In this document: positions 1-21,228 of the stretch, in pieces
Layout: every line of letters starts with the position of its first letter
Numbering within the stretch: position 1 is the stretch's first letter
Virus record (IMG/VR): IMGVR_UViG_3300045988_147492
Reading direction: 5' to 3' (one strand)
Origin: a virus
Taxonomy: Duplodnaviria > Heunggongvirae > Uroviricota > Caudoviricetes
DNA: 26,796 bases
Made by a program: the position numbers and the translations under genes
Notes under the pieces: generated by a model
Seen by the model: the letters and a program-made list of their open reading frames with translations, nothing else
Database searches by the model: none
Told to the model about the DNA's origin: nothing

Positions 1-1
1 A

Positions 2-430
2 AAAAGCGGCATCGCCGCGCCTCGGAGTCCTGTCAATAACTGTGGAAAGCTCACCGGTGGTGATACTTCGTTACCGGCTCCCACACCTTCTGAGCACGCC
101 GCCGCAGTGCTTAATCTGGTTGATGACGGTGTTATTGAATGGAATGAACCGGAGGTCGTGAGGGCGCTCAGGGGCGCATTAAAACACGGACTGAGAACAC
201 CACATTGTCAGCCAAGAAACGGAAGCCCGTTAAAACCGCATGAAATAGCGCCATCAGCTAGACTGACCAGGTCGGAACGAATGCAAATCACCCGTATCCG
301 CGTTGACCTTGCTCAGAACGGTATCAGGCCGCAGCGATGGGAACTTGAGGCGCTGGCGCGTGGAGCGACATTGGTATATGGCGAAAAAAAATTCACATAT
401 CAGCTTGTTGATAAGCAGTTTTGTTTTTAA
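2..430 (+). CDS. 3' portion of an upstream early-region phage gene whose 5' end lies outside the window; possibly the C-terminus of replication protein gpA or an adjacent early ORF
   Basis: The frame is open from window position 2 to the stop at 428-430; the ORF track lists it only from a GTG at 107. Its GC content is like the phage backbone, not the AT-rich cassette downstream. Its position left of the cargo locus fits the P2 prophage order int-C-cox-B-A-hotspot-cos. Confidence 0.45.
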   Translation, partial: KSGIAAPRSPVNNCGKLTGGDTSLPAPTPSEHAAAVLNLVDDGVIEWNEPEVVRALRGALKHGLRTPHCQPRNGSPLKPHEIAPSARLTRSERMQITRIRVDLAQNGIRPQRWELEALARGATLVYGEKKFTYQLVDKQFCF

Positions 431-869
431 TCAAATAGTGTATTAAATGTACTAAAATGTATCTTTTTATATAAAAAACAAAGTGTTGAATCAATTCTCG
501 GCTTTTGTATTTTTTAGATCGTAAACCGATTAGTGTTACCAAGAGTATTCAGTTAATAGGGCTTTAATTTTTTGCTTCCCTGTTTTGGTGGTTATGTGGT
601 ACTGTGTTTTTATACAGTTTTTGAGGTTGCTGAGAAATAGAGAATGATAGAGTTATATGCGAGCCTTAGTTTAATTCGTTGTAATTAGGATCGGGTATAT
701 CATTCGTGCTGTCAGTGGTCCTATACCACTAAGCAAAGCAATAGAATCCTACGAATTATTGTTTAAATAGTAACATTGGCAATTATAACGGCAGTATCTG
801 TGTTTTGTCTGTCAGTGGTTACATCGAGAGTATGTGATTTGCATTACATAACTAGTTGATGTTCCTTAG

Positions 870-898
870 TTGTAGATAGAAAGTATTCGATTTATTAT
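870..898 (+). promoter_or_regulatory. Candidate sigma70 promoter for the four-gene cassette (TTGTAG, 17-bp spacer, TATTAT)
   Basis: -35-like TTGTAG at 870-875 and -10-like TATTAT at 893-898 with a 17-bp spacer, about 35 bp upstream of the ORF at 932. An AAGGA Shine-Dalgarno-like motif at 920-924 lies 7 nt before the ATG. Confidence 0.3.
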
Positions 899-931
899 AA
901 GAGTACAAAAATTTATGCTAAGGATACTAGA

Positions 932-1123
932 ATGGAGTGGATTACACATATCATCACTTTCTTTGTCGGACTGGGAGCGGGTTGGTCGATTCGTGTCGTG
1001 TTTTCATCTAGAAAGCAAATTGGTAATTCCAGCGTGAACTCAAACAATCATACAGTTACTCAAACTGGTAACAGTGTTACAAATGGAAGTATTGTTGGCG
1101 GTAATCAGGATAGGTCACATTAA
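932..1123 (+). CDS. Small membrane-anchored protein (63 aa): one N-terminal hydrophobic helix followed by a Gly/Asn/Thr-rich repeat tail
   Basis: ATG start with an upstream AAGGA. Residues about 4-24 (ITHIITFFVGLGAGWSIRVVF) are hydrophobic. The C-terminal 20 aa (TVTQTGNSVTNGSIVGGNQD) recur at the N-terminus of the next ORF. AT-rich codon usage differs from the phage backbone. Confidence 0.5.
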   Translation: MEWITHIITFFVGLGAGWSIRVVFSSRKQIGNSSVNSNNHTVTQTGNSVTNGSIVGGNQDRSH

Positions 1124-1134
1124 GAGGTGTTGGT

Positions 1135-1698
1135 GTGTCTATCGAACAGTCAGGAAATACCGTAACAAATGGCAACATAATTTCTGGTGATCAGACTAAT
1201 CATATATTCAATTATCCTGTTAAAGGAACTAACCGGGAGATACAGAAACTTTATGAGTGTTTGAAGAGAGGTGATATAGGGGAAGCGGTTCCGGGGTTTT
1301 GTGCTGAACTAGAGCATTATATGTCCCTTCAGCCTGATATTGATGTTCGGGGGTTAGACGCTAAATTACTCGAGAGTAATAGAAAAGATTTGTTGTTTTT
1401 AGCTAAGCAGATGAAGGAAAAAGCGACAAAAGCCATAATGCGTCGCCAGACGTCAAAAACTGCACAAAGAATATTTGTAATAATTTTAGATCAAATTCAT
1501 TTTGATTTTATAACGAAAGTAACACCACTTATAGAAGCGGATAGCTCCAGAGTGATTGTTGATGAGAAAATCGCTTCAATAATTGATGAATTATATTCGT
1601 CTTTGGGAGAGAACTTGCTAGAGCTAACAGCAAAAGATCTCTTGGGATTACTATTTTTTCTGGGTGGCAATTGCCATATAAGGTGGGATAAATGCTAA
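1135..1698 (+). CDS. Predicted alpha-helical protein (187 aa, GTG start) beginning with the same 20-aa repeat motif as the preceding ORF; candidate effector or adaptor component
   Basis: GTG start at 1135 preceded by GAGG at 1124-1127. The N-terminus SIEQSGNTVTNGNIISGDQT matches the tail of the upstream ORF. The 3' end overlaps the next ORF by 7 nt, consistent with an operon. Confidence 0.55.
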   Translation: MSIEQSGNTVTNGNIISGDQTNHIFNYPVKGTNREIQKLYECLKRGDIGEAVPGFCAELEHYMSLQPDIDVRGLDAKLLESNRKDLLFLAKQMKEKATKAIMRRQTSKTAQRIFVIILDQIHFDFITKVTPLIEADSSRVIVDEKIASIIDELYSSLGENLLELTAKDLLGLLFFLGGNCHIRWDKC

Positions 1699-2192
1699 TT
1701 TACCATCCAGCATATGATGCATATCATTGTTTATTCAGAATGATTGCTCTTATAGACCATGTAAATGAAATTGAGGTAGATAAGGCCAGAATTTTGGACT
1801 TCTATCTGCTATTTCCTGCTTTGGTATCTGAAATTAGAATGCCTCATAATTATTCTTCAATGAAGAAAGAAGCGAAGAAGTATTCTAATATATATCGGGA
1901 TCCTATTAATGTTAGATCTACATTCAGAGATATGTATGAAATTCAAATGGCAGCAATAAGATGTCTTGCAGCTACTGGGTTGGTTGAGATGGATTGTCTT
2001 GAGAAAAACATTATAAAGAGAACAGATAAGTCTGTTCCAGATGGCTTATTACTTTCTATTAATAATTTTATTAATACGAATAAAACTATTAATACATTTA
2101 TCATAGATACACTATCTAAATTCCATTTGGTTGGAAAAGATGGTTTAAAAGATAGAACGAAGTTAATGGAGTTTAGATATGACTATTCTTAA
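1692..2192 (+). CDS. Small helical protein (166 aa), translationally coupled between the upstream ORF and the ATPase; candidate middle or accessory component
   Basis: ATG at 1692 with AGGTGGG at about 1679-1685. It overlaps the upstream ORF by 7 nt and the downstream ATPase by 14 nt. Composition is AT-rich like the rest of the cassette. Confidence 0.6.
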   Translation: MLIYHPAYDAYHCLFRMIALIDHVNEIEVDKARILDFYLLFPALVSEIRMPHNYSSMKKEAKKYSNIYRDPINVRSTFRDMYEIQMAAIRCLAATGLVEMDCLEKNIIKRTDKSVPDGLLLSINNFINTNKTINTFIIDTLSKFHLVGKDGLKDRTKLMEFRYDYS

Positions 2193-4116
2193 TCCATCTT
2201 TTTTTGTTAGTAAATTAAAAGTTTTCCAAGCTGGGCATGAAGCATTTAGCTGTGTTTTCCATAAAGGGGTAAATGTAATAAGGGGGCGAAATAGCTCTGG
2301 CAAAACTACTGTTATGGATCTTTTAGCATTTTCACTTGGTGCTGAAAATATTAGCTTGAAACCAACAGCTCTTTTATGTTCATTTACCATGGTTGAAGTG
2401 CTTTTGAATAATAATCTTGCCTGTTTTAAGCGGGAGATAAGTTCAGAATCCATGCGGCCGTTGAGTATTTTTTGGGGCTCGATGGATAAAGCTCTTAACT
2501 CATCACCGAGTCAGTGGCAAACTTATCCTTTTAAGCGTTCAGAAAAATCACTGAGTTTTTCTCAGGTAATTCTAAATGCTTTGGATATGCCTCTAGCTCA
2601 AGGAGAGGGTGCTTCAATTTTAACAATGCATCAAATCCTACGTGTATTATATGCAGATCAGCCATCTCTTCATAGTCCTATATTTAGGAACGATAATTTT
2701 GATAGAGCTCTAACACGAGAGACTATTGGTGATTATTTATGTGGTATATTTGATGACAAACTTTATAGCTCTTTGATTAGGCTTAAACAGGTTGATGCTG
2801 AACTTTCGACAAAAATTGTTGAGCTGAAAAGCATATTTAAAGTTCTTGGACGCTCTGGGCAATCGCAGCATGTAAGTTTTATTGACGATAAAATAAAAGA
2901 GCTAAGAGAGAAGAAAGAAAAGATCAATGGAGAGCTTATCTCTCTCAAAGAGAGTAATAACTCTTCTGTTAATGATAAAAATGCTGATAAAACTAAAACT
3001 AACAACCTTCGAAAAAATTTAAATAAAGCGAAGGAAGAAGAAGTAAAAAATATTGACAGTATCCATATGTTAGAAATGGAGATAGCTGACTCTGAAATGT
3101 TCATTAATGAGTTAGAATCCAGATTGCGCTCTCTTAATGAATCAAGTATTGCCAGAGACTATTTTAGCAACGTTAAATTTCAATTTTGTCCCAGTTGTTT
3201 AAGTGAGTTGAATATTTCCTCTGAAAATGAGTGCTCATTATGTAAAAATCACGCGCCAGAGGGTAGTGATGCTCCTCAATTATTAAGGATGAAAAATGAG
3301 ATTTCTATCCAATTAAAAGAATCCAGAGATCTTCTTGAGCATAATTATGTAAAACTGAGAGAGCTTAAGAGCCAATCTCCTGCTTTAAAGCAAAAAGTGC
3401 GAGATTTAATTCGTGAATATGAAGAAGTCTCTAAGGTTTGGGAAAATGCCTATGAAATAGAGTTTGAAACTCTTACTAAGGCTCTGGGACGTGTTGAAGA
3501 AGAAATTAAACAGGCTTGTGAATTACAAAAACTTAGTGATGTAATATCTGATTTGCAAAAAGATCGTGATAGTCTGCAGTCAGAGAAGGAGAGATTGTCC
3601 TCTTTAATTGAATCTTTGGAGAGTAAAGAGGAATATAGGAAGAAGGATATTTCTAAAACTATAGAAAACATTATGAAAAGACTTCTTAAAAAAGATCTTC
3701 CATTGCAGACTGAATTTATTGATCCTAGAAAAGTTAATTTTAGCTTTGCCGATAATACTGTTTATGTAAATGGGTCTAAGTATTTTTCAGAAAGTTCAGC
3801 AGTTGTATTAAGACATCTCTTTCATTTAGCATTGTTAACTGCAAGTATTGAAAAAAAATACATGAGATTACCTCGTTTCCTAATGCTTGATGGAATTGAC
3901 GATGGTGGAATGGAGAAAGAGCGCAGTCACAATCTGCAGAAAATAATAGTACAAGAAACTCAATCGTATCAATATGATTTTCAAATAATTTATGCTACAT
4001 CGGAGATTAATCCAGAATATGAAAATACCGATTTGATTGTTGGTCGATATTTTAATCCAGATGATAAATCATTAAAGATAAATTATACCGCTCTTGATAA
4101 AGATTTATTGAACTAA
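2179..4116 (+). CDS. SMC/Rad50-like ABC ATPase (645 aa): N-terminal Walker A, long central coiled coil with a CxxC-x11-CxxC zinc-hook-like motif, C-terminal signature-like and Walker B/D-loop/H-loop region; no nuclease domain
   Basis: Walker A GRNSSGKT at residues 36-43 (nt 2284-2307). A Lys/Glu/Leu-rich heptad-like region spans roughly residues 190-520 and produces the antisense low-complexity ORFs at 2763-3104 and 3450-3671. Cysteines C337, C340, C352 and C355 lie at nt 3187-3243. Walker-B-like FLMLDGIDDGG sits near residue 567, followed by ERSHNL. ATG at 2179 with GGAG 8 nt upstream. Confidence 0.8.
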   Translation: MTILNPSFFVSKLKVFQAGHEAFSCVFHKGVNVIRGRNSSGKTTVMDLLAFSLGAENISLKPTALLCSFTMVEVLLNNNLACFKREISSESMRPLSIFWGSMDKALNSSPSQWQTYPFKRSEKSLSFSQVILNALDMPLAQGEGASILTMHQILRVLYADQPSLHSPIFRNDNFDRALTRETIGDYLCGIFDDKLYSSLIRLKQVDAELSTKIVELKSIFKVLGRSGQSQHVSFIDDKIKELREKKEKINGELISLKESNNSSVNDKNADKTKTNNLRKNLNKAKEEEVKNIDSIHMLEMEIADSEMFINELESRLRSLNESSIARDYFSNVKFQFCPSCLSELNISSENECSLCKNHAPEGSDAPQLLRMKNEISIQLKESRDLLEHNYVKLRELKSQSPALKQKVRDLIREYEEVSKVWENAYEIEFETLTKALGRVEEEIKQACELQKLSDVISDLQKDRDSLQSEKERLSSLIESLESKEEYRKKDISKTIENIMKRLLKKDLPLQTEFIDPRKVNFSFADNTVYVNGSKYFSESSAVVLRHLFHLALLTASIEKKYMRLPRFLMLDGIDDGGMEKERSHNLQKIIVQETQSYQYDFQIIYATSEINPEYENTDLIVGRYFNPDDKSLKINYTALDKDLLN

Positions 4117-4120
4117 CAAC

Positions 4121-4150
4121 CAAAACCATGCATAACCATGCATGGTTTTG
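4121..4150. terminator. Perfect 12-bp inverted repeat (caaaaccatgca / tgcatggttttg) with a 6-nt loop, containing a 10-bp direct repeat aaccatgcat x2; putative terminator and cargo boundary
   Basis: Arms at 4121-4132 and 4139-4150 are exact reverse complements. It lies 5 nt after the ATPase stop and about 100 bp before cos. The T-run is partly inside the stem, so terminator function is uncertain. Confidence 0.4.
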
Positions 4151-4249
4151 CATTTATATCAGCTTGTTTTTGAATCGGGGCAAGTCCAGGGGTGGTAAGC
4201 TGTTTGGAGAAAACTGCAACTGCATTAAAACCGCCCCGTGAAGCGGGCG

Positions 4250-4268
4250 GGCGAGGCGGGGAAAGCAC
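4250..4268. other. cos: cos site: 19-nt cohesive-end sequence of P2-type phages (GGCGAGGCGGGGAAAGCAC)
   Basis: The sequence ggcgaggcggggaaagcac is present at 4250-4268, in the expected place between the cargo locus and portal gene Q. The match to the P2 cohesive end is from memory, not from a search. Confidence 0.6.
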
Positions 4269-4410
4269 TGCGCGCTGGCGGTGGTGCTGATTTTATTTTT
4301 TCAGCGTCTCAGCGCGTCGTGACGGCGCTTAGTCTGCCCGTTGAGGCGTTGGTGTGTCTGCGGGGTGTTTTGTGCGGTGGTGAGCGTGTGAGGGCGTGAT
4401 GACGGGGTGT

Positions 4411-4432
4411 AAAAAAGCCGCCCGCAGGCGGC
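4411..4432 (-). terminator. Rho-independent terminator immediately after Q on the minus strand
   Basis: On the minus strand the Q stop at 4440-4438 is followed by GCCGCC-UGCG-GGCGGC (6-bp GC stem, 4-nt loop; plus-strand coordinates 4417-4432) and then six U residues (plus-strand aaaaaa at 4411-4416). Confidence 0.6.
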
Positions 4433-4437
4433 GATGT

Positions 4438-5472
4438 TCAGCCGTTGTCAGTGTCCAGTGAGTAGTTTTTAAATCGGATGACCTCCTGACCGAGCCAGCC
4501 GTTTATCTCGCGGATCCTGTCCTGTAACGGGATAAGCTCATTGCGGACAAAGACCTTTGCCACTTTCTCAATATCACCCAGCGACCCGACGTTTTCCGGC
4601 TTGCCACCCATCAACTGAAAGGGGATGCGGTGCGCGTCAAGCAGGTCAGCGGCGCTGGCTTTTTTGATATTAAAAAAATCGTCCTTCGTTGCCACTTCAC
4701 TGAGCGGGATAATTTTAATGCCGTCGGCTTTCCCCTGAGGGGCATAGAGAAACAGATTTTTAAAGTTATTGCGGCCTTTCGACTTAACCATGTTTTCGCG
4801 AAGCATTTCGATATCGTTGCGATCCTGCACGGCATCGGTGACGTACATGATGTATCCGGCATGTGCGCCGTTTTCGTAATACTTGCGGCGGAACAGCGTG
4901 GCCGACTCATTCAGCCAGGCAGAGTTAAGGGCGCTGAGATATTCCGGCAGGCCGTACAGCTCCTGATTAATATCGGGCTCCAGCAGGTGAAACACGGAGC
5001 CGGGCGCGAAGGCTGTCGGCTCGTTGAAGGACGGCACCCACCAGTAAACATCCTCTTCCACGCCACGACGGGTATATTTCGCCGGTGAGGTTTCCAGTCT
5101 GATGACCTTACTGGTGGTGCTGTAGCGCTTTTCCAGAAACGCATTACCGAACACCAGAAAATCCAGCACAAAGCGGCTGAAATCCTGCTGAGAAAGCCAC
5201 GGATGCGGGATAAATGTCGAGGCCAGAATATTACGTTTGACGTAAATCGGTGAGCTGTGATGCACGGCAGCACGCAGGCTTTTTGCCAGACCGGTAAAGC
5301 TGACCGGTGGCTCATACCATCTGCCGTTACTGATGCACTCGACGTAATCCAGAATGTCACGGCGGTCGAGTACCGGCACCGGCTCACCAAAGGTGAATGC
5401 CTCCATTTTCGGGGCGCTGGCGGTGATTGTTTTTGCCGCAGGTTGCGGTGTTTTCCCTTTTTTCTTGCTCAT
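4438..5472 (-). CDS. Q: Portal protein (344 aa)
   Basis: The length equals P2 gpQ. It lies next to cos and is transcribed towards it. Its start overlaps the stop of P (TGATG on the minus strand), as in the P2 P-Q operon. Confidence 0.93.
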   Translation of the reverse strand: MSKKKGKTPQPAAKTITASAPKMEAFTFGEPVPVLDRRDILDYVECISNGRWYEPPVSFTGLAKSLRAAVHHSSPIYVKRNILASTFIPHPWLSQQDFSRFVLDFLVFGNAFLEKRYSTTSKVIRLETSPAKYTRRGVEEDVYWWVPSFNEPTAFAPGSVFHLLEPDINQELYGLPEYLSALNSAWLNESATLFRRKYYENGAHAGYIMYVTDAVQDRNDIEMLRENMVKSKGRNNFKNLFLYAPQGKADGIKIIPLSEVATKDDFFNIKKASAADLLDAHRIPFQLMGGKPENVGSLGDIEKVAKVFVRNELIPLQDRIREINGWLGQEVIRFKNYSLDTDNG

Positions 5473-18363: not shown

Positions 18364-18891
18364 ATGCAGCATTTGATAAATATAACGGCAGGTAATCCAA
18401 AAACGGTTGAACAATATCAATTGACAAAGAACTTTGATGTCGTCTGGTTTTTTACAGAAGATGGTAAGAACTGGTACGAAGAACAAAAGTATTTTGCTGA
18501 TGACACGATAAAAATAGCGTACGACAAAGATAATATCATCCGCTATGTGGAAAAGGATGTGACAGCTATCAGACCGGATGGATTAAGTGTTGTTGAAGTG
18601 GCGGATATTACTGCTAACCGACGGGCGGACATTTCAGGGAACTGGATGTTTAAGGACGGCAAAGTGATTAAACGCATTTATACGGCAGAGGAATTACAGC
18701 AGCAGGCAGAAATTCGGAAAGCCAGACTTCTTGCAGATGCTGAATCCGTGATTTTGCCGCTGGAGCGCGCGGTCAGACTGAACATGGCAACAGATGAGGA
18801 GCGTAGCCGACTGGAATCATGGGAACGCTACAGCGTTCTGGTCAGTCGTGTGGATCCTGCAAATCCTGAATGGCCGGAAATGCCGCAATAA
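18364..18891 (+). CDS. G: Tail fibre assembly chaperone G (175 aa)
   Basis: Size and position match P2 gpG; the AT-richer composition continues from the 3' part of H, consistent with a swapped H-C-terminus/G module. Confidence 0.88.
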
Positions 18892-19106
18892 GTTGTATTA
18901 GCTTACATATCTATGGCACAGAGTAAAGCCTAATCTGACAGTCCGCTCTGTGCCAGAAGCGGATGTTGTAAAGTTTATTTGGAGAATAATGGTTAGATGA
19001 ACTATGTAGATCATAGCCCTCAAAAGTCAGTAGTCTTACACCATATAAATAGTCATTTAGAGATAGTACACCACCTACAAAAAAAGAGATAAAGCGCGCA
19101 AGCTGC

Positions 19107-19259
19107 ATGAAGATACATAAAATGCTTCATCCTGGACTTGATGTTAGAATTAATGCTGACACTCGCTTTGTAAAAGATAAAGATGATTTTGAGGATGATT
19201 GGTTTATTAATTATCTCCAATGTTTGTTGTTTTGTGATGATAAAGATTCTCTGGATTAA
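19107..19259 (+). CDS. Small acidic hypothetical protein (50 aa) in the G-FI cargo island
   Basis: ATG at 19107 and stop at 19257-19259, about 20 nt before a bidirectional terminator. Too short for the ORF track; no strong Shine-Dalgarno, so coding status is uncertain. Confidence 0.3.
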   Translation: MKIHKMLHPGLDVRINADTRFVKDKDDFEDDWFINYLQCLLFCDDKDSLD

Positions 19260-19277
19260 TAGGATAGTAATTCAATT

Positions 19278-19306
19278 AAAAGAGACCTTATAGAAGGTCT
19301 CTTTTA
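19278..19306. terminator. Bidirectional rho-independent terminator (stem agagacctt / aaggtctct, loop atag, flanked by A-run and T-run)
   Basis: 9-bp perfect stem at 19281-19289 and 19294-19302, with aaa upstream and tttt downstream. It lies between the convergent small plus-strand ORF and the minus-strand membrane protein gene. Confidence 0.6.
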
Positions 19307-19329
19307 AGTTATGGGGGCTGATTTTATAT

Positions 19330-19707
19330 TCAATAGCGTATGCTCATCGAAGAAATAAACTCATAAAATGTAAAGACAGCCAGCAAAAACATACAGATAA
19401 AGATAAGGGAAATAGCACACTTAACTAAGGGCTGAACCCCCCGAGGTGTTCCCCATGGTTTAGACATTTGGGTTATAACCCAAATAAATAAGGCCACAAA
19501 ACAGCAAACACCAGCCAATCCGAGCAGAGATATTATGACAACTCCAAACAGATTTCCAACATCTAGTTTATCTGTTTTTGCAACTAGGGTTAACAAACCA
19601 GCAATAATAGTTGCAATCGATATTCCCGCAATGGTTGTGAGATCGGCGATAACAGCCAGTTTTTCTTTAGTATTTCCTTGAGTAAAAACCTCTAAAATTG
19701 ATTTCAT
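19330..19707 (-). CDS. Integral membrane protein (125 aa, about three transmembrane helices); candidate lysogenic-conversion or superinfection-exclusion cargo at the P2 Z/fun position
   Basis: ATG at 19707 with an AGGTGG Shine-Dalgarno upstream on the minus strand; the track's 129-aa form starts at an upstream GTG. Three hydrophobic segments (LAVIADLTTIAGISIATIIAGLLTLVA, LFGVVIISLLGLAGVCCFVALFIWVI, LVKCAISLIFICMFLLAVFTFYEFI). AT-rich; ends just before the bidirectional terminator. Confidence 0.6.
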   Translation of the reverse strand: MKSILEVFTQGNTKEKLAVIADLTTIAGISIATIIAGLLTLVAKTDKLDVGNLFGVVIISLLGLAGVCCFVALFIWVITQMSKPWGTPRGVQPLVKCAISLIFICMFLLAVFTFYEFISSMSIRY

Positions 19708-19749
19708 GGAAATAACCACCTACTATCGATTATATTCAGGAGCTTTTTA

Positions 19750-19959
19750 TCATAACGATATCAGATAGATAAGGACATTGTAATATTTTGGATGATTTAA
19801 ACTTGCTTTTGTAACTTTAATGTCCACTTTTCGCTCAAAGCAGACTGTCAGATTTGATAGCATTTGGGTTATGTAAATTGTCAGTCGGAAAATGAGTGTG
19901 TACAAATCAGGACAGGCGGGCGAATTGCCCGCATTTTCTTTATCTGTTGTTTCATCCAC
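19750..19959 (-). CDS. Doubtful small ORF (69 aa, GTG start) upstream of the membrane protein gene
   Basis: Present in the ORF track, but it has no clear Shine-Dalgarno and overlaps the predicted FI late-promoter region; it may simply be 5' leader of the membrane-protein transcript. Confidence 0.15.
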   Translation of the reverse strand: MDETTDKENAGNSPACPDLYTLIFRLTIYITQMLSNLTVCFERKVDIKVTKASLNHPKYYNVLIYLISL

Positions 19960-20037
19960 TGACCAGCCAGGTCAAATAGCGTCTCATGCTCTGCACAACA
20001 GAAAATAATTGCACCCATTAACCACGGAGTTAAACGG
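19944..20037 (+). promoter_or_regulatory. Late promoter region for FI-FII-E-T-U-D; candidate activator element CTGTTGTtTCA...CCA at 19944-19965
   Basis: The 22-bp element shares CTGTTGTnTCA...CCA with the element at 7310-7331 upstream of O. It lies about 75-95 bp upstream of the FI ATG; GGAG Shine-Dalgarno at 20026-20029. Confidence 0.35.
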
Positions 20038-21228
20038 ATGAGCGACTATCATCATGGCGTGCAGGTGCTGGAGATTAACGACGGCACCCGCGTCATTTCC
20101 ACTGTATCCACCGCCATTGTCGGCATGGTCTGCACGGCCAGCGATGCGGATGCGGAAACCTTCCCCCTCAATAAACCGGTGCTGATTACCAATGTGCAGA
20201 GCGCAATTGCAAAGGCTGGTAAAAAAGGCACGCTGGCGGCGTCGTTGCAGGCCATCGCTGACCAGTCAAAACCGGTCACCGTTGTTGTGCGCGTGGAAGA
20301 CGGCACCGGCGACGACGAAGAAACGAAACTCGCGCAGACCGTTTCCAATATCATCGGCACCACCGACGAAAACGGTCAGTACACCGGACTGAAAGCCCTG
20401 CTGGCGGCGGAGTCGGTAACCGGTGTTAAACCGCGTATTCTCGGTGTGCCGGGACTGGATACCAAAGAGGTGGCTGTTGCACTGGCATCCGTCTGTCAGA
20501 AGCTGCGCGCTTTCGGATATATCAGCGCATGGGGCTGTAAGACCATTTCCGAGGTGAAAGCCTACCGCCAGAATTTCAGCCAGCGTGAGCTGATGGTCAT
20601 CTGGCCGGATTTCCTCGCATGGGATACGGTCACCAGTACCACCGCCACCGCGTATGCCACCGCCCGTGCGCTGGGTCTGCGCGCTAAAATCGACCAGGAG
20701 CAGGGCTGGCATAAAACGCTGTCCAATGTCGGGGTGAACGGTGTTACCGGCATCAGCGCATCTGTATTCTGGGATTTGCAGGAGTCCGGCACCGATGCTG
20801 ACCTGCTGAACGAGTCAGGCGTCACAACGCTGATTCGCCGTGACGGTTTCCGCTTCTGGGGTAACCGTACCTGCTCTGATGACCCGCTGTTCCTCTTTGA
20901 AAACTACACCCGCACCGCGCAGGTGCTGGCCGACACGATGGCTGAGGCGCACATGTGGGCGGTGGATAAGCCCATCACTGCAACGCTGATTCGCGACATC
21001 GTTGACGGCATCAATGCCAAATTCCGTGAGCTGAAAACAAACGGCTATATCGTGGATGCGACCTGCTGGTTCAGCGAAGAATCCAACGATGCGGAAACCC
21101 TCAAGGCCGGAAAACTGTATATCGACTACGACTATACTCCGGTGCCTCCTCTCGAAAACCTGACCCTGCGCCAGCGTATTACTGATAAATACCTGGCAAA
21201 TCTGGTCACCTCGGTTAACAGCAATTAA
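20038..21228 (+). CDS. FI: Contractile tail sheath protein (396 aa)
   Basis: Size and position match P2 gpFI. Confidence 0.93.
   Translation: MSDYHHGVQVLEINDGTRVISTVSTAIVGMVCTASDADAETFPLNKPVLITNVQSAIAKAGKKGTLAASLQAIADQSKPVTVVVRVEDGTGDDEETKLAQTVSNIIGTTDENGQYTGLKALLAAESVTGVKPRILGVPGLDTKEVAVALASVCQKLRAFGYISAWGCKTISEVKAYRQNFSQRELMVIWPDFLAWDTVTSTTATAYATARALGLRAKIDQEQGWHKTLSNVGVNGVTGISASVFWDLQESGTDADLLNESGVTTLIRRDGFRFWGNRTCSDDPLFLFENYTRTAQVLADTMAEAHMWAVDKPITATLIRDIVDGINAKFRELKTNGYIVDATCWFSEESNDAETLKAGKLYIDYDYTPVPPLENLTLRQRITDKYLANLVTSVNSN

Follow-up and report, generated by a model that had tools for sequence, protein, structure and literature searches.

Lamassu is a defence family present in roughly a tenth of prokaryotic genomes. 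Its mode of activation, by release and oligomerisation of a sequestered effector, has been worked out only recently, and for nuclease effectors alone: a dimer of the ATPase LmuB, joined in type II systems by LmuC, holds a single LmuA molecule by its C-terminal domain (CTD), and the sensing of DNA ends together with ATP turnover frees LmuA, which then forms an active oligomer in a one-way switch (10.1101/2025.03.14.643221, 10.1101/2025.06.23.660979). In the type II system DdmABC of Vibrio cholerae, the LmuA-type protein DdmA consists of a CTD7 domain fused to a Cap4 nuclease, and the middle component belongs to class MC3. Another form of coupling operates in the Escherichia coli abortive infection (Abi) pair Bab/Agp, where a small membrane-targeting protein has a C-terminal motif of ~20 amino acids (aa), and the neighbouring sensor protein carries this motif at its N-terminus and activates the first protein through it, activation being an amyloid templating event that occurs upon phage infection (10.1101/2024.11.07.622273). 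Here we analyse a cassette of four open reading frames (ORF1 to ORF4) at positions 932-4116 of the virus record IMGVR_UViG_3300045988_147492, a stretch of 26,796 nucleotides (nt) referred to below as the window, which is a P2-like prophage of E. coli, and compare it with both kinds of system.

The cassette has the operon order of type II Lamassu and of DdmABC, namely a CTD protein, a middle component and a Rad50-like LmuB with a deviant Walker B motif, and it has in common with them overlapping genes and residence in a mobile defence island. It differs in that its middle component and CTD belong to classes MC5 and CTD9, in that a motif of ~20 aa stands in place of the N-terminal enzyme, and in that a fourth gene encodes a transmembrane (TM) protein with the same motif. 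We propose, at a probability of roughly 0.6, that the cassette is a type II Lamassu Abi system in which the effector function is split between ORF1 and ORF2, and which is carried as cargo of the hotspot between the P2 gene gpA and the cohesive end site cos.

The ORF2-ORF4 genes and the Lamassu family

ORF4 is matched by eleven LmuB models of PADLOC, the best of which, PDLC03862, covers residues 6-573 (4.5e-47). It possesses a Walker A motif, GRNSSGKT (K42), and a deviant Walker B motif, FLMLDG (567-572); a Walker B motif that naturally deviates has also been reported for BcLmuB and VcLmuB (10.1101/2025.06.23.660979). A coiled-coil-like region extends over residues ~200-505, with CPSC/CSLC at 337-355 (CxxC pairs at 337 and 352) near its middle. 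These features bear out a preliminary description of the cassette, which had read this 645-aa protein as an SMC/Rad50-like ATPase with a coiled coil and a zinc hook. That description had also set aside OLD, PARIS, Septu and Gabija, and rightly: ORF4 has no full-length match to OLD, PARIS (AriA), Septu (PtuA) or Gabija (GajA), the matches to PtuA, GajA, AriA and JetC being confined to the P-loop (residues ~15-59, E 1e-4 to 3e-2), while PADLOC and Pfam reveal no TOPRIM, DUF4435, HNH or helicase partner domain in ORF1-ORF3. Neither ORF4 nor the CTD9 profile found a significant match in sequence searches of the PDB, and NCBIfam gave nothing above cut-off for the cassette proteins.

ORF3 matches the Pfam family MC5 (PF20291, "ABC-3C middle component 5") over its full length (1.3e-52; 178.4 bits against a 25-bit cut-off), with a weak match to LmuC of PADLOC (0.011), and residues 73-184 of ORF2 (nt 1351-1686) match CTD9 (PF20285, "C-terminal domain 9 of ABC-3C systems"; 2.4e-29; 102.5 bits against a 27.9-bit cut-off). 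RefSeq/PGAP names both as ABC-three-component (ABC-3C) proteins. Because PADLOC and Pfam thus recognise LmuB, MC5 and CTD9, the cassette is, by its profile matches, a type II Lamassu (LmuA-LmuC-LmuB; ABC-3C) of an MC5/CTD9 clade and not a new system; the family, its Pfam domains and the hotspot are all already known. The preliminary description had named Lamassu/ABC-3C as the closest layout, which turns out to be outright family membership, and had entertained a possibly undescribed system, a suggestion that falls with the confident family matches of three of the four genes (ORF2-ORF4).

The cassette counts as a Lamassu variant because no enzymatic domain is fused N-terminally to CTD9. Neither Pfam nor an AlphaFold2 (AF2) model of ORF2 reveals an enzymatic or other domain N-terminal to CTD9, and no LmuA model of PADLOC matches ORF2 at E<1. 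The AF2 model, built from a 24-sequence alignment (mean pLDDT 78), comprises a confident seven-helix domain (residues 34-178) preceded by disordered residues 1-29. In a Foldseek comparison with the PDB, its top match was YydB in the YydD-YydB model (probability 0.96, E 0.23), the others being helical-bundle noise. An exhaustive profile search yielded 612 representatives at 50% identity, 500 of them at E<=1e-10. The best 150 of the 612 have a median length of 189 aa, only six of them reaching at least 230 aa, and the long outliers among these 150 that were checked proved to be mis-called frames or to have other N-terminal extensions or domains. Judged by these lengths, the short form is the norm for this CTD9 subfamily. 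ORF2 homologues in Gamma- and Betaproteobacteria measure ~181-223 aa, and none is fused to a TM segment.

The end of the CTD9 domain is itself conserved. Its last residues, FFLGGNCHIRWD(K/P)C (window about 1654-1695), are nearly invariant from Alpha- to Gammaproteobacteria in alignment A1, with G178, N179, C180, H181, R183, W184 and D185 invariant, and the Cys-His...Cys pattern in this sequence points to a site for metal binding or to one that is key to docking.

A motif carried by both ORF1 and ORF2

ORF1 is composed of a TM helix (residues 2-27; nt 935-1012), a variable linker and a C-terminal motif, TQTGNSVTNGSIVGGNQD (about nt 1058-1111); in its AF2 model, residues 2-27 are helical and the remainder disordered. 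G13, G15, G17 and W18 are invariant among its Enterobacterales relatives. It matches the function-unknown PHROG phrog_17975 (2.5e-45) and has no match in Pfam, NCBIfam or PADLOC. The exact protein is encoded on 732 contigs, and the homologue search recovered close Enterobacterales relatives only and thus carries no information on other sensor partners. ORF2 begins with EQSGNTVTNGNIISGDQT and presents its own copy of the motif, EQSGNTVTNGNIISGDQ, near the N-terminus (about nt 1144-1197). The repeat that the preliminary description had noticed in both proteins is real. Its view of ORF1 as a repeat protein was rejected, since the first pseudo-repeat proved to be a variable linker that P0130 and P0133 lack through deletion, and the motif alone is conserved.

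The pairing was followed in 37 loci from distinct species and in three further loci found through contigs. Contig-end truncations aside, no locus departs from the order ORF2-ORF3-ORF4, the ORF3 gene lies 3′ of the CTD9 gene in every locus examined, and an ORF4 orthologue (31-78% identity) occupies the same position in nearly every one. In each of the 34 short-form loci that could be evaluated, which span the Gamma-, Beta- and Alphaproteobacteria and include one Bacteroidota-labelled metagenome-assembled genome (MAG), a TM ORF of 50-67 aa is located 0-190 nt 5′ of the CTD9 gene; locus L039 offers no upstream sequence, and L043 only the C-terminal end of the small ORF, at a contig edge. The small TM proteins have a common layout of acidic N-terminus, glycine-rich TM helix, basic stretch, variable linker and motif. 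Their net charge of -1.0 on the N-terminal side of the helix and +2.9 on the C-terminal side predicts an N-out/C-in topology with a cytoplasmic motif. Frameshifts interrupt the small TM ORF in two loci, L027 (Ottowia) and L007 (one Comamonas genome).

Two further signs of decay were seen in the sample. In three Comamonas genomes (L005-L007) an insertion sequence (IS) element has shortened LmuB to 353 aa, and in a betaproteobacterial MAG (L040) the CTD9 gene is frameshifted, with motif copies NQAGGDIAGRDV and NSAGGDIAGRDV that still match.

A motif of ~16-20 aa is common to the ORF1 C-terminus and the ORF2 N-terminus in the window and in 34 other loci, and both partners conform to the consensus x-Q-x-x-N-x-[AV]-G-G-D-[ILVM]-[VIA]-G-[GR]-[DN]-K. 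The two copies from one locus resemble each other more than copies paired across loci (mean score 50.4 vs 33.8; z=8.4; 0 of 100,000 partner permutations), although relatedness among the loci inflates this permutation statistic; of 31 pairs, 8 have the true partner at rank one and 16 have it within the first three ranks. Despite this relatedness, several independent clade-specific variants are visible in both partners, including GSIVGRDQ in Erwinia, GHMxGRDVNV in Bradyrhizobium, GGDI[IV]VG in Variovorax and Acidovorax and TQKxIxAxGDVVxGxKxTTIN in a Comamonas MAG, and the Enterobacterales have a one-residue insertion in both. Gene conversion between the motif-coding segments was considered and rejected: at residues common to the two copies, codon identity (0.44) equals the expectation from codon usage (0.44), which argues that the match is maintained by selection at the protein level. 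The composition of the motif is distinctive as well. Q, N, G, V and I together make up 0.55-0.59 of it, compared with 0.26 in the rest of the CTD9 proteins, and K, P and L together 0.06-0.09, compared with 0.21 elsewhere in the protein, proline being absent and lysine alone not depleted. By residue counts, the bias is the one described for the motifs of bacterial amyloid signalling (BASS), which are rich in Q, N, G, V and I and poor in K, P and L (10.1101/2020.01.06.895854).

The sole long-form locus sampled, L046, combines a DUF676 esterase with CTD9 and possesses neither the motif nor the small TM ORF. Because this esterase-fused form lacks both, the motif and TM protein together appear to stand in for an effector that is attached covalently. 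With the cassette, L046 has in common the CTD9 docking domain as well as MC5-like and LmuB partners, and the "Hydrolase + SMC" system that Rousset et al. (2022, PMC9122126) cloned from E. coli REL606 occupies the same P2 hotspot between gpA and gpQ, a likeness of position that leaves CTD9 and MC5 content aside. Unlike the cassette, both have three genes, with the hydrolase covalently attached, and neither shared motif nor TM partner. Lipase-type CTD8/CTD9 LmuA proteins have been mentioned before (10.1101/2025.03.14.643221). The preliminary description's notion of a membrane protein in the place of an enzymatic effector is borne out and reinforced by an ORF2 that has neither effector domain nor LmuA match and by an ORF1-ORF2 pair that is conserved and co-evolving across proteobacterial classes; of the two options it had left, new variant or new system, the former is therefore the right one.

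Proposed mechanism and its alternatives

The ORF1-ORF2 pair resembles Bab/Agp (BASS11), the NLR/Bell pairs with BASS motifs and the fungal pair NWD2/HET-S. In these, as in ORF1, a small protein combines a hydrophobic helix at the N-terminus with a motif of ~20 aa at the C-terminus; the motif is repeated at the N-terminus of the adjacent sensor-side protein, as in ORF2; and the motifs are rich in G, N, Q, V and I, poor in P and L, co-evolving and found in a prophage defence hotspot, as here. The sensor side differs, being a Lamassu SMC-like complex that would act through a CTD9 adaptor in the cassette, and a TPR-GreA/B-PIN protein (Agp) or an NLR/STAND protein in BASS systems. ORF1 is also a single TM helix without a detectable Bell/HeLo domain, unlike the BASS effectors, its likeness to Bell/HeLo being limited to an acidic N-terminal residue followed by a hydrophobic helix, and amyloid formation is here only proposed. 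Homotypic coupling is likewise a feature of the effector-associated-domain (EAD/Death-like) adaptors of NTPase conflict systems described by the Aravind group, in which a sensor-bound protein and a separate effector carry the same small module. EAD modules are folded domains, whereas the element shared by ORF1 and ORF2 is a peptide of ~16-20 aa with predicted disorder. The Cap15-type proteins of CBASS and RexB are examples of small TM effectors. Such effectors respond to nucleotide ligands or to the binding of partner proteins, not to a motif that they have in common with an adaptor docked on an SMC protein; a small membrane protein as terminal executioner has been described in other Abi systems (Rousset et al. 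2022, PMC9122126).

We propose the following sequence of events. By analogy with the solved Lamassu complexes, single ORF2 molecules would be sequestered on LmuB2-LmuC in the resting state, and the sensing by LmuB of phage DNA ends or replication intermediates would release them. Released ORF2 would oligomerise through its CTD9 domains, and the N-terminal motifs clustered in this way would form a β-structured nucleus that captures or templates the motif of ORF1. This presumed motif-motif contact would cluster the TM helices of ORF1, which, as the putative killer, would permeabilise the inner membrane, and the infected cell would die before the phage cycle is completed. On a more speculative level, the hand-off could be true amyloid or prion-like templating, as in Bab/Agp or NWD2/HET-S. 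That MC5/CTD9-clade Lamassu systems signal DNA detection in this manner, with CTD9 oligomers nucleating a cross-β fold and the 50-67-aa TM protein becoming a pore, is a possibility that we hold only tentatively.

The variant raises the question of how an effector that is separate from the SMC-like sensor can be driven by it, and a short co-evolving peptide, placed both on a docked adaptor and on a free membrane protein, offers a testable coupling rule. Should the hand-off prove to be amyloid-like, amyloid signalling would extend beyond NLR systems and one TPR-PIN system into a major defence family of unicellular bacteria, and an SMC/Rad50-type sensor would for the first time be linked to it. 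The motif would then constitute a new family among the amyloid signalling motifs of bacteria, one with a wide distribution in unicellular Proteobacteria (612 clusters at 50% identity), and ORF1 would be the smallest known amyloid-gated cell-death executioner, a minimal 63-aa protein for mechanistic work.

Several considerations weigh against this reading or temper it. Krishnan et al. 2020 are said to have defined the ABC-3C systems, CTD9 and MC5, and the architecture may already have been noted in that original paper; with this reservation, we did not find the four-gene form with an enzyme-less CTD9 adaptor and a motif-paired small TM protein described. Full-text literature searches found no paper joining Lamassu with amyloid and none citing the cassette's four protein accessions, and the cassette's RefSeq accessions were not found in the portion of the supplementary tables of Rousset et al. 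2022 that was covered. The defence, toxicity and interactions proposed for this variant are predictions from genes and models. The inflation of the permutation statistic by relatedness applies here too, and the co-variation signifies a joint constraint on the two motifs, which a common third partner would equally produce. The motif is likened to BASS by composition and pairing, not by the BASS1-11 profiles, the AF2 monomer models present the motifs as disordered only, and Pfam, NCBIfam and PADLOC detect no Bell/HeLo homology in ORF1. Disruption of the small ORF or of LmuB in some genomes (L007, L027 and Comamonas) indicates that the system is dispensable and decays. No protection on an 8-phage panel is reported for the Lamassu relative of the P2 hotspot ("Hydrolase + SMC"; Rousset et al. 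2022, PMC9122126), and the outcome was negative too for a Lamassu variant of P4 in which no effector is known. Finally, standard tools would probably call this system incomplete: no LmuA model of PADLOC covers ORF2, so that loci of this kind are probably recorded as incomplete Lamassu and their number underestimated.

The P4 system "LmuBC_SMEK" (Moura de Sousa et al. 2026) was considered as an instance of the same variant and rejected, being a different, SMEK-type variant; its case shows that such loci are currently treated as incomplete. The supplements of that paper contain no DNA match to the cassette.

Although it seems improbable to us, the best of the alternatives is that the cassette is a type II Lamassu in which ORF1 serves as a membrane anchor or regulator. 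A non-amyloid β-strand zipper would then tether the CTD9 adaptor to the inner membrane or sequester it there, perhaps together with the entire LmuB-LmuC complex, and toxicity or exclusion would stem from another activity, such as that of LmuB/LmuC on DNA or of a host factor recruited by ORF2. A co-evolving shared motif and a cytoplasmic orientation fit a constitutive heterotypic contact equally well, and ORF1 is minimal, with a single TM helix, its formation of a pore being a proposal only. However, PADLOC, Pfam and NCBIfam reveal no other effector candidate in the operon, and in the Lamassu systems that have been solved or tested it is the CTD-bearing protein that delivers the effector domain, mutations of which abolish defence. 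The esterase-fused CTD9 form without a TM partner likewise suggests that the TM protein substitutes for an effector and not for an anchor, and the invariant G-x-G-x-G-W face of the ORF1 helix is typical of helix-helix packing.

A split effector could also operate as we propose and be directed chiefly at plasmids and other mobile elements, or at competing prophages, as DdmABC is at plasmids in V. cholerae; this we rate as less probable again. Type II Lamassu in the form of DdmABC acts on plasmids as well as phages, cargo of the P2 hotspot can act against related phages of the P2 type (Rousset et al. 2022, PMC9122126), and the two related hotspot variants mentioned above gave no reported protection on small phage panels. 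This alternative concerns the range of targets, not the mechanism, and phage defence is favoured by location in the old/tin slot and by the record of the family; moreover, tblastn of ORF2 against the PLSDB plasmids recovered no CTD9 relative. It is highly improbable that ORF1 and ORF2 are a broken or recoded single TM-CTD9 gene, or an effector-less Lamassu remnant in decay beside an unrelated ORF1, even though the two are adjacent, have a motif in common and lack an enzyme domain in ORF2, and even though the Xanthomonas and Comamonas pairs lie in the same frame, a stop and one codon apart: the relative frames of the orthologues differ among lineages, so that the two are not joined by recoding, both genes are provided with a start and a Shine-Dalgarno sequence of their own, no fused homologue occurs among the best 150 of the 612 CTD9 representatives, and the exact ORF1 protein on 732 contigs, the two-gene layout in 34 of 34 evaluable loci and protein-level selection on both motif copies all argue for two genes, and a frameshifted single gene was rejected on these grounds.

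The gpA-cos slot and neighbouring features

The split-effector system that we favour occupies a slot with well-defined borders (Table 1). The ends of gpA, cos and Q place the four genes, all on the + strand, between P2 gpA and cos/gpQ, in agreement with the location given in the preliminary description. P2 itself carries old and tin in this slot. Its contents vary, being cdtABC in the P2-like phage KC618326 and Dcm with paraMORC3 in a second such phage, PV340563. The slot of P2 between gpA and gpQ is a documented hotspot in which 1,650 arrangements have been counted (Rousset et al. 2022, PMC9122126), and Lamassu-family systems have previously been reported from prophage hotspots. The AT-richness noted in that description is likewise evident, GC content being 0.30-0.38 across ~400-4200 against 0.51-0.59 in the flanking phage backbone. 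All four ORFs that the preliminary description had called co-directional and overlapping are present as it described them, and each is preceded by a Shine-Dalgarno-like sequence; overlaps join ORF2 to ORF3 (7 nt) and ORF3 to ORF4 (14 nt), but ORF1 and ORF2 are separated by a gap of 11 nt.

Table 1. Coordinates of the cassette genes and of the features that border them in the window
Feature	Position	Strand	Remarks
3′ end of P2 gpA (replication endonuclease) gene	107..430	+	Left border of the cargo slot; PHROG matches for origin nicking
Leader travelling with the cassette	855..931	+	Presumed promoter region; homology with the Phytobacter cassette (L011) from 855
ORF1	932..1123	+	63 aa; single-pass membrane protein, proposed executioner
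ORF2	1135..1698	+	187 aa; GTG start; LmuA-like adaptor without enzymatic domain
ORF3	1692..2192	+	166 aa; LmuC-equivalent middle component (MC5)
ORF4	2179..4116	+	645 aa; LmuB, Rad50/SMC-like ABC ATPase, the presumed sensor
Palindrome, perfect 13-bp stem, CAAAACCATGCAT-AACC-ATGCATGGTTTTG	4121..4150		5 nt 3′ of the ORF4 stop
P2 cos cohesive end, 19 nt, GGCGAGGCGGGGAAAGCAC	4250..4268	+	Right border of the slot; exact 19/19, 0 expected by chance
Portal gene Q	4438-5472	-	Terminase gene comes after

The 3′ region of gpA is identical in NZ_CP159698, where it is annotated as replication endonuclease, and the intact cassette is present in 19 of 5426 complete E. coli genomes. Diverged four-gene cassettes were also found beside other P2-like genes: that of Phytobacter diazotrophicus (L011; 74% nucleotide identity) adjoins a gpA-sized ORF, and that of Erwinia rhapontici (L016; ~65-69% nucleotide identity) a Q-like portal gene, which indicates that the variant circulates among P2-like prophages of several Enterobacterales genera. 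A tblastn search of the INPHARED phage genomes with ORF2 recovered no CTD9 relative. Elsewhere, related loci have integrase, IS and toxin-antitoxin genes nearby, a setting that, like the P2 hotspot, speaks for a role in defence.

Between gpA and the cassette lie ~420 bp (431-854; GC about 0.32-0.36) that contain no convincing ORF and appear to be non-coding; they are not common to the Phytobacter cassette, with which DNA homology begins at 855. Promoter-like sites in 431-854, of which there are several, fall on the minus strand only, a simple sigma-70 scan gave no convincing + strand promoter 5′ of ORF1 (855-931 included), and an Rfam scan of positions 1-5000 of the window found nothing. At the other end of the cassette, the palindrome ends ~65 nt ahead of the point at which homology to the P2-like backbone resumes (~4215). 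It is likely a bidirectional terminator or the boundary of the cassette, and could serve as a terminator or as a recombination landmark for the swapping of cassettes. A comparable hairpin, CCATGCAT...ATGCATGG, opens a P4-hotspot insert (supplement of 10.64898/2026.02.27.708500).

A second AT-rich island (18900-20030; GC 0.35-0.44), flanked by the genes for tail-fibre assembly (18364-18891) and for the sheath (FI, 20038-21228), corresponds to the Z/fun cargo slot of P2. On its minus strand are an ORF for a 129-aa multi-TM protein (19330-19719), which has no PADLOC match and no significant Pfam match (DUF2206, E=0.089, is below cut-off), and a possible ORF of 65 aa (18911-19108); another cargo gene, as yet uncharacterised, may reside in the island. 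The window also contains a 17-nt direct repeat, GAGG(T/C)GTTGGTGTGTCT, at 1124-1140 and 4343-4359, with 16 of 17 positions identical. Its first copy lies across the ORF1-ORF2 junction and takes in both the GTG start of ORF2 and its Shine-Dalgarno sequence, and its second copy lies in the P2 backbone between cos and Q; by a rough estimate, ~0.02 such pairs would be expected by chance per 4 kb.

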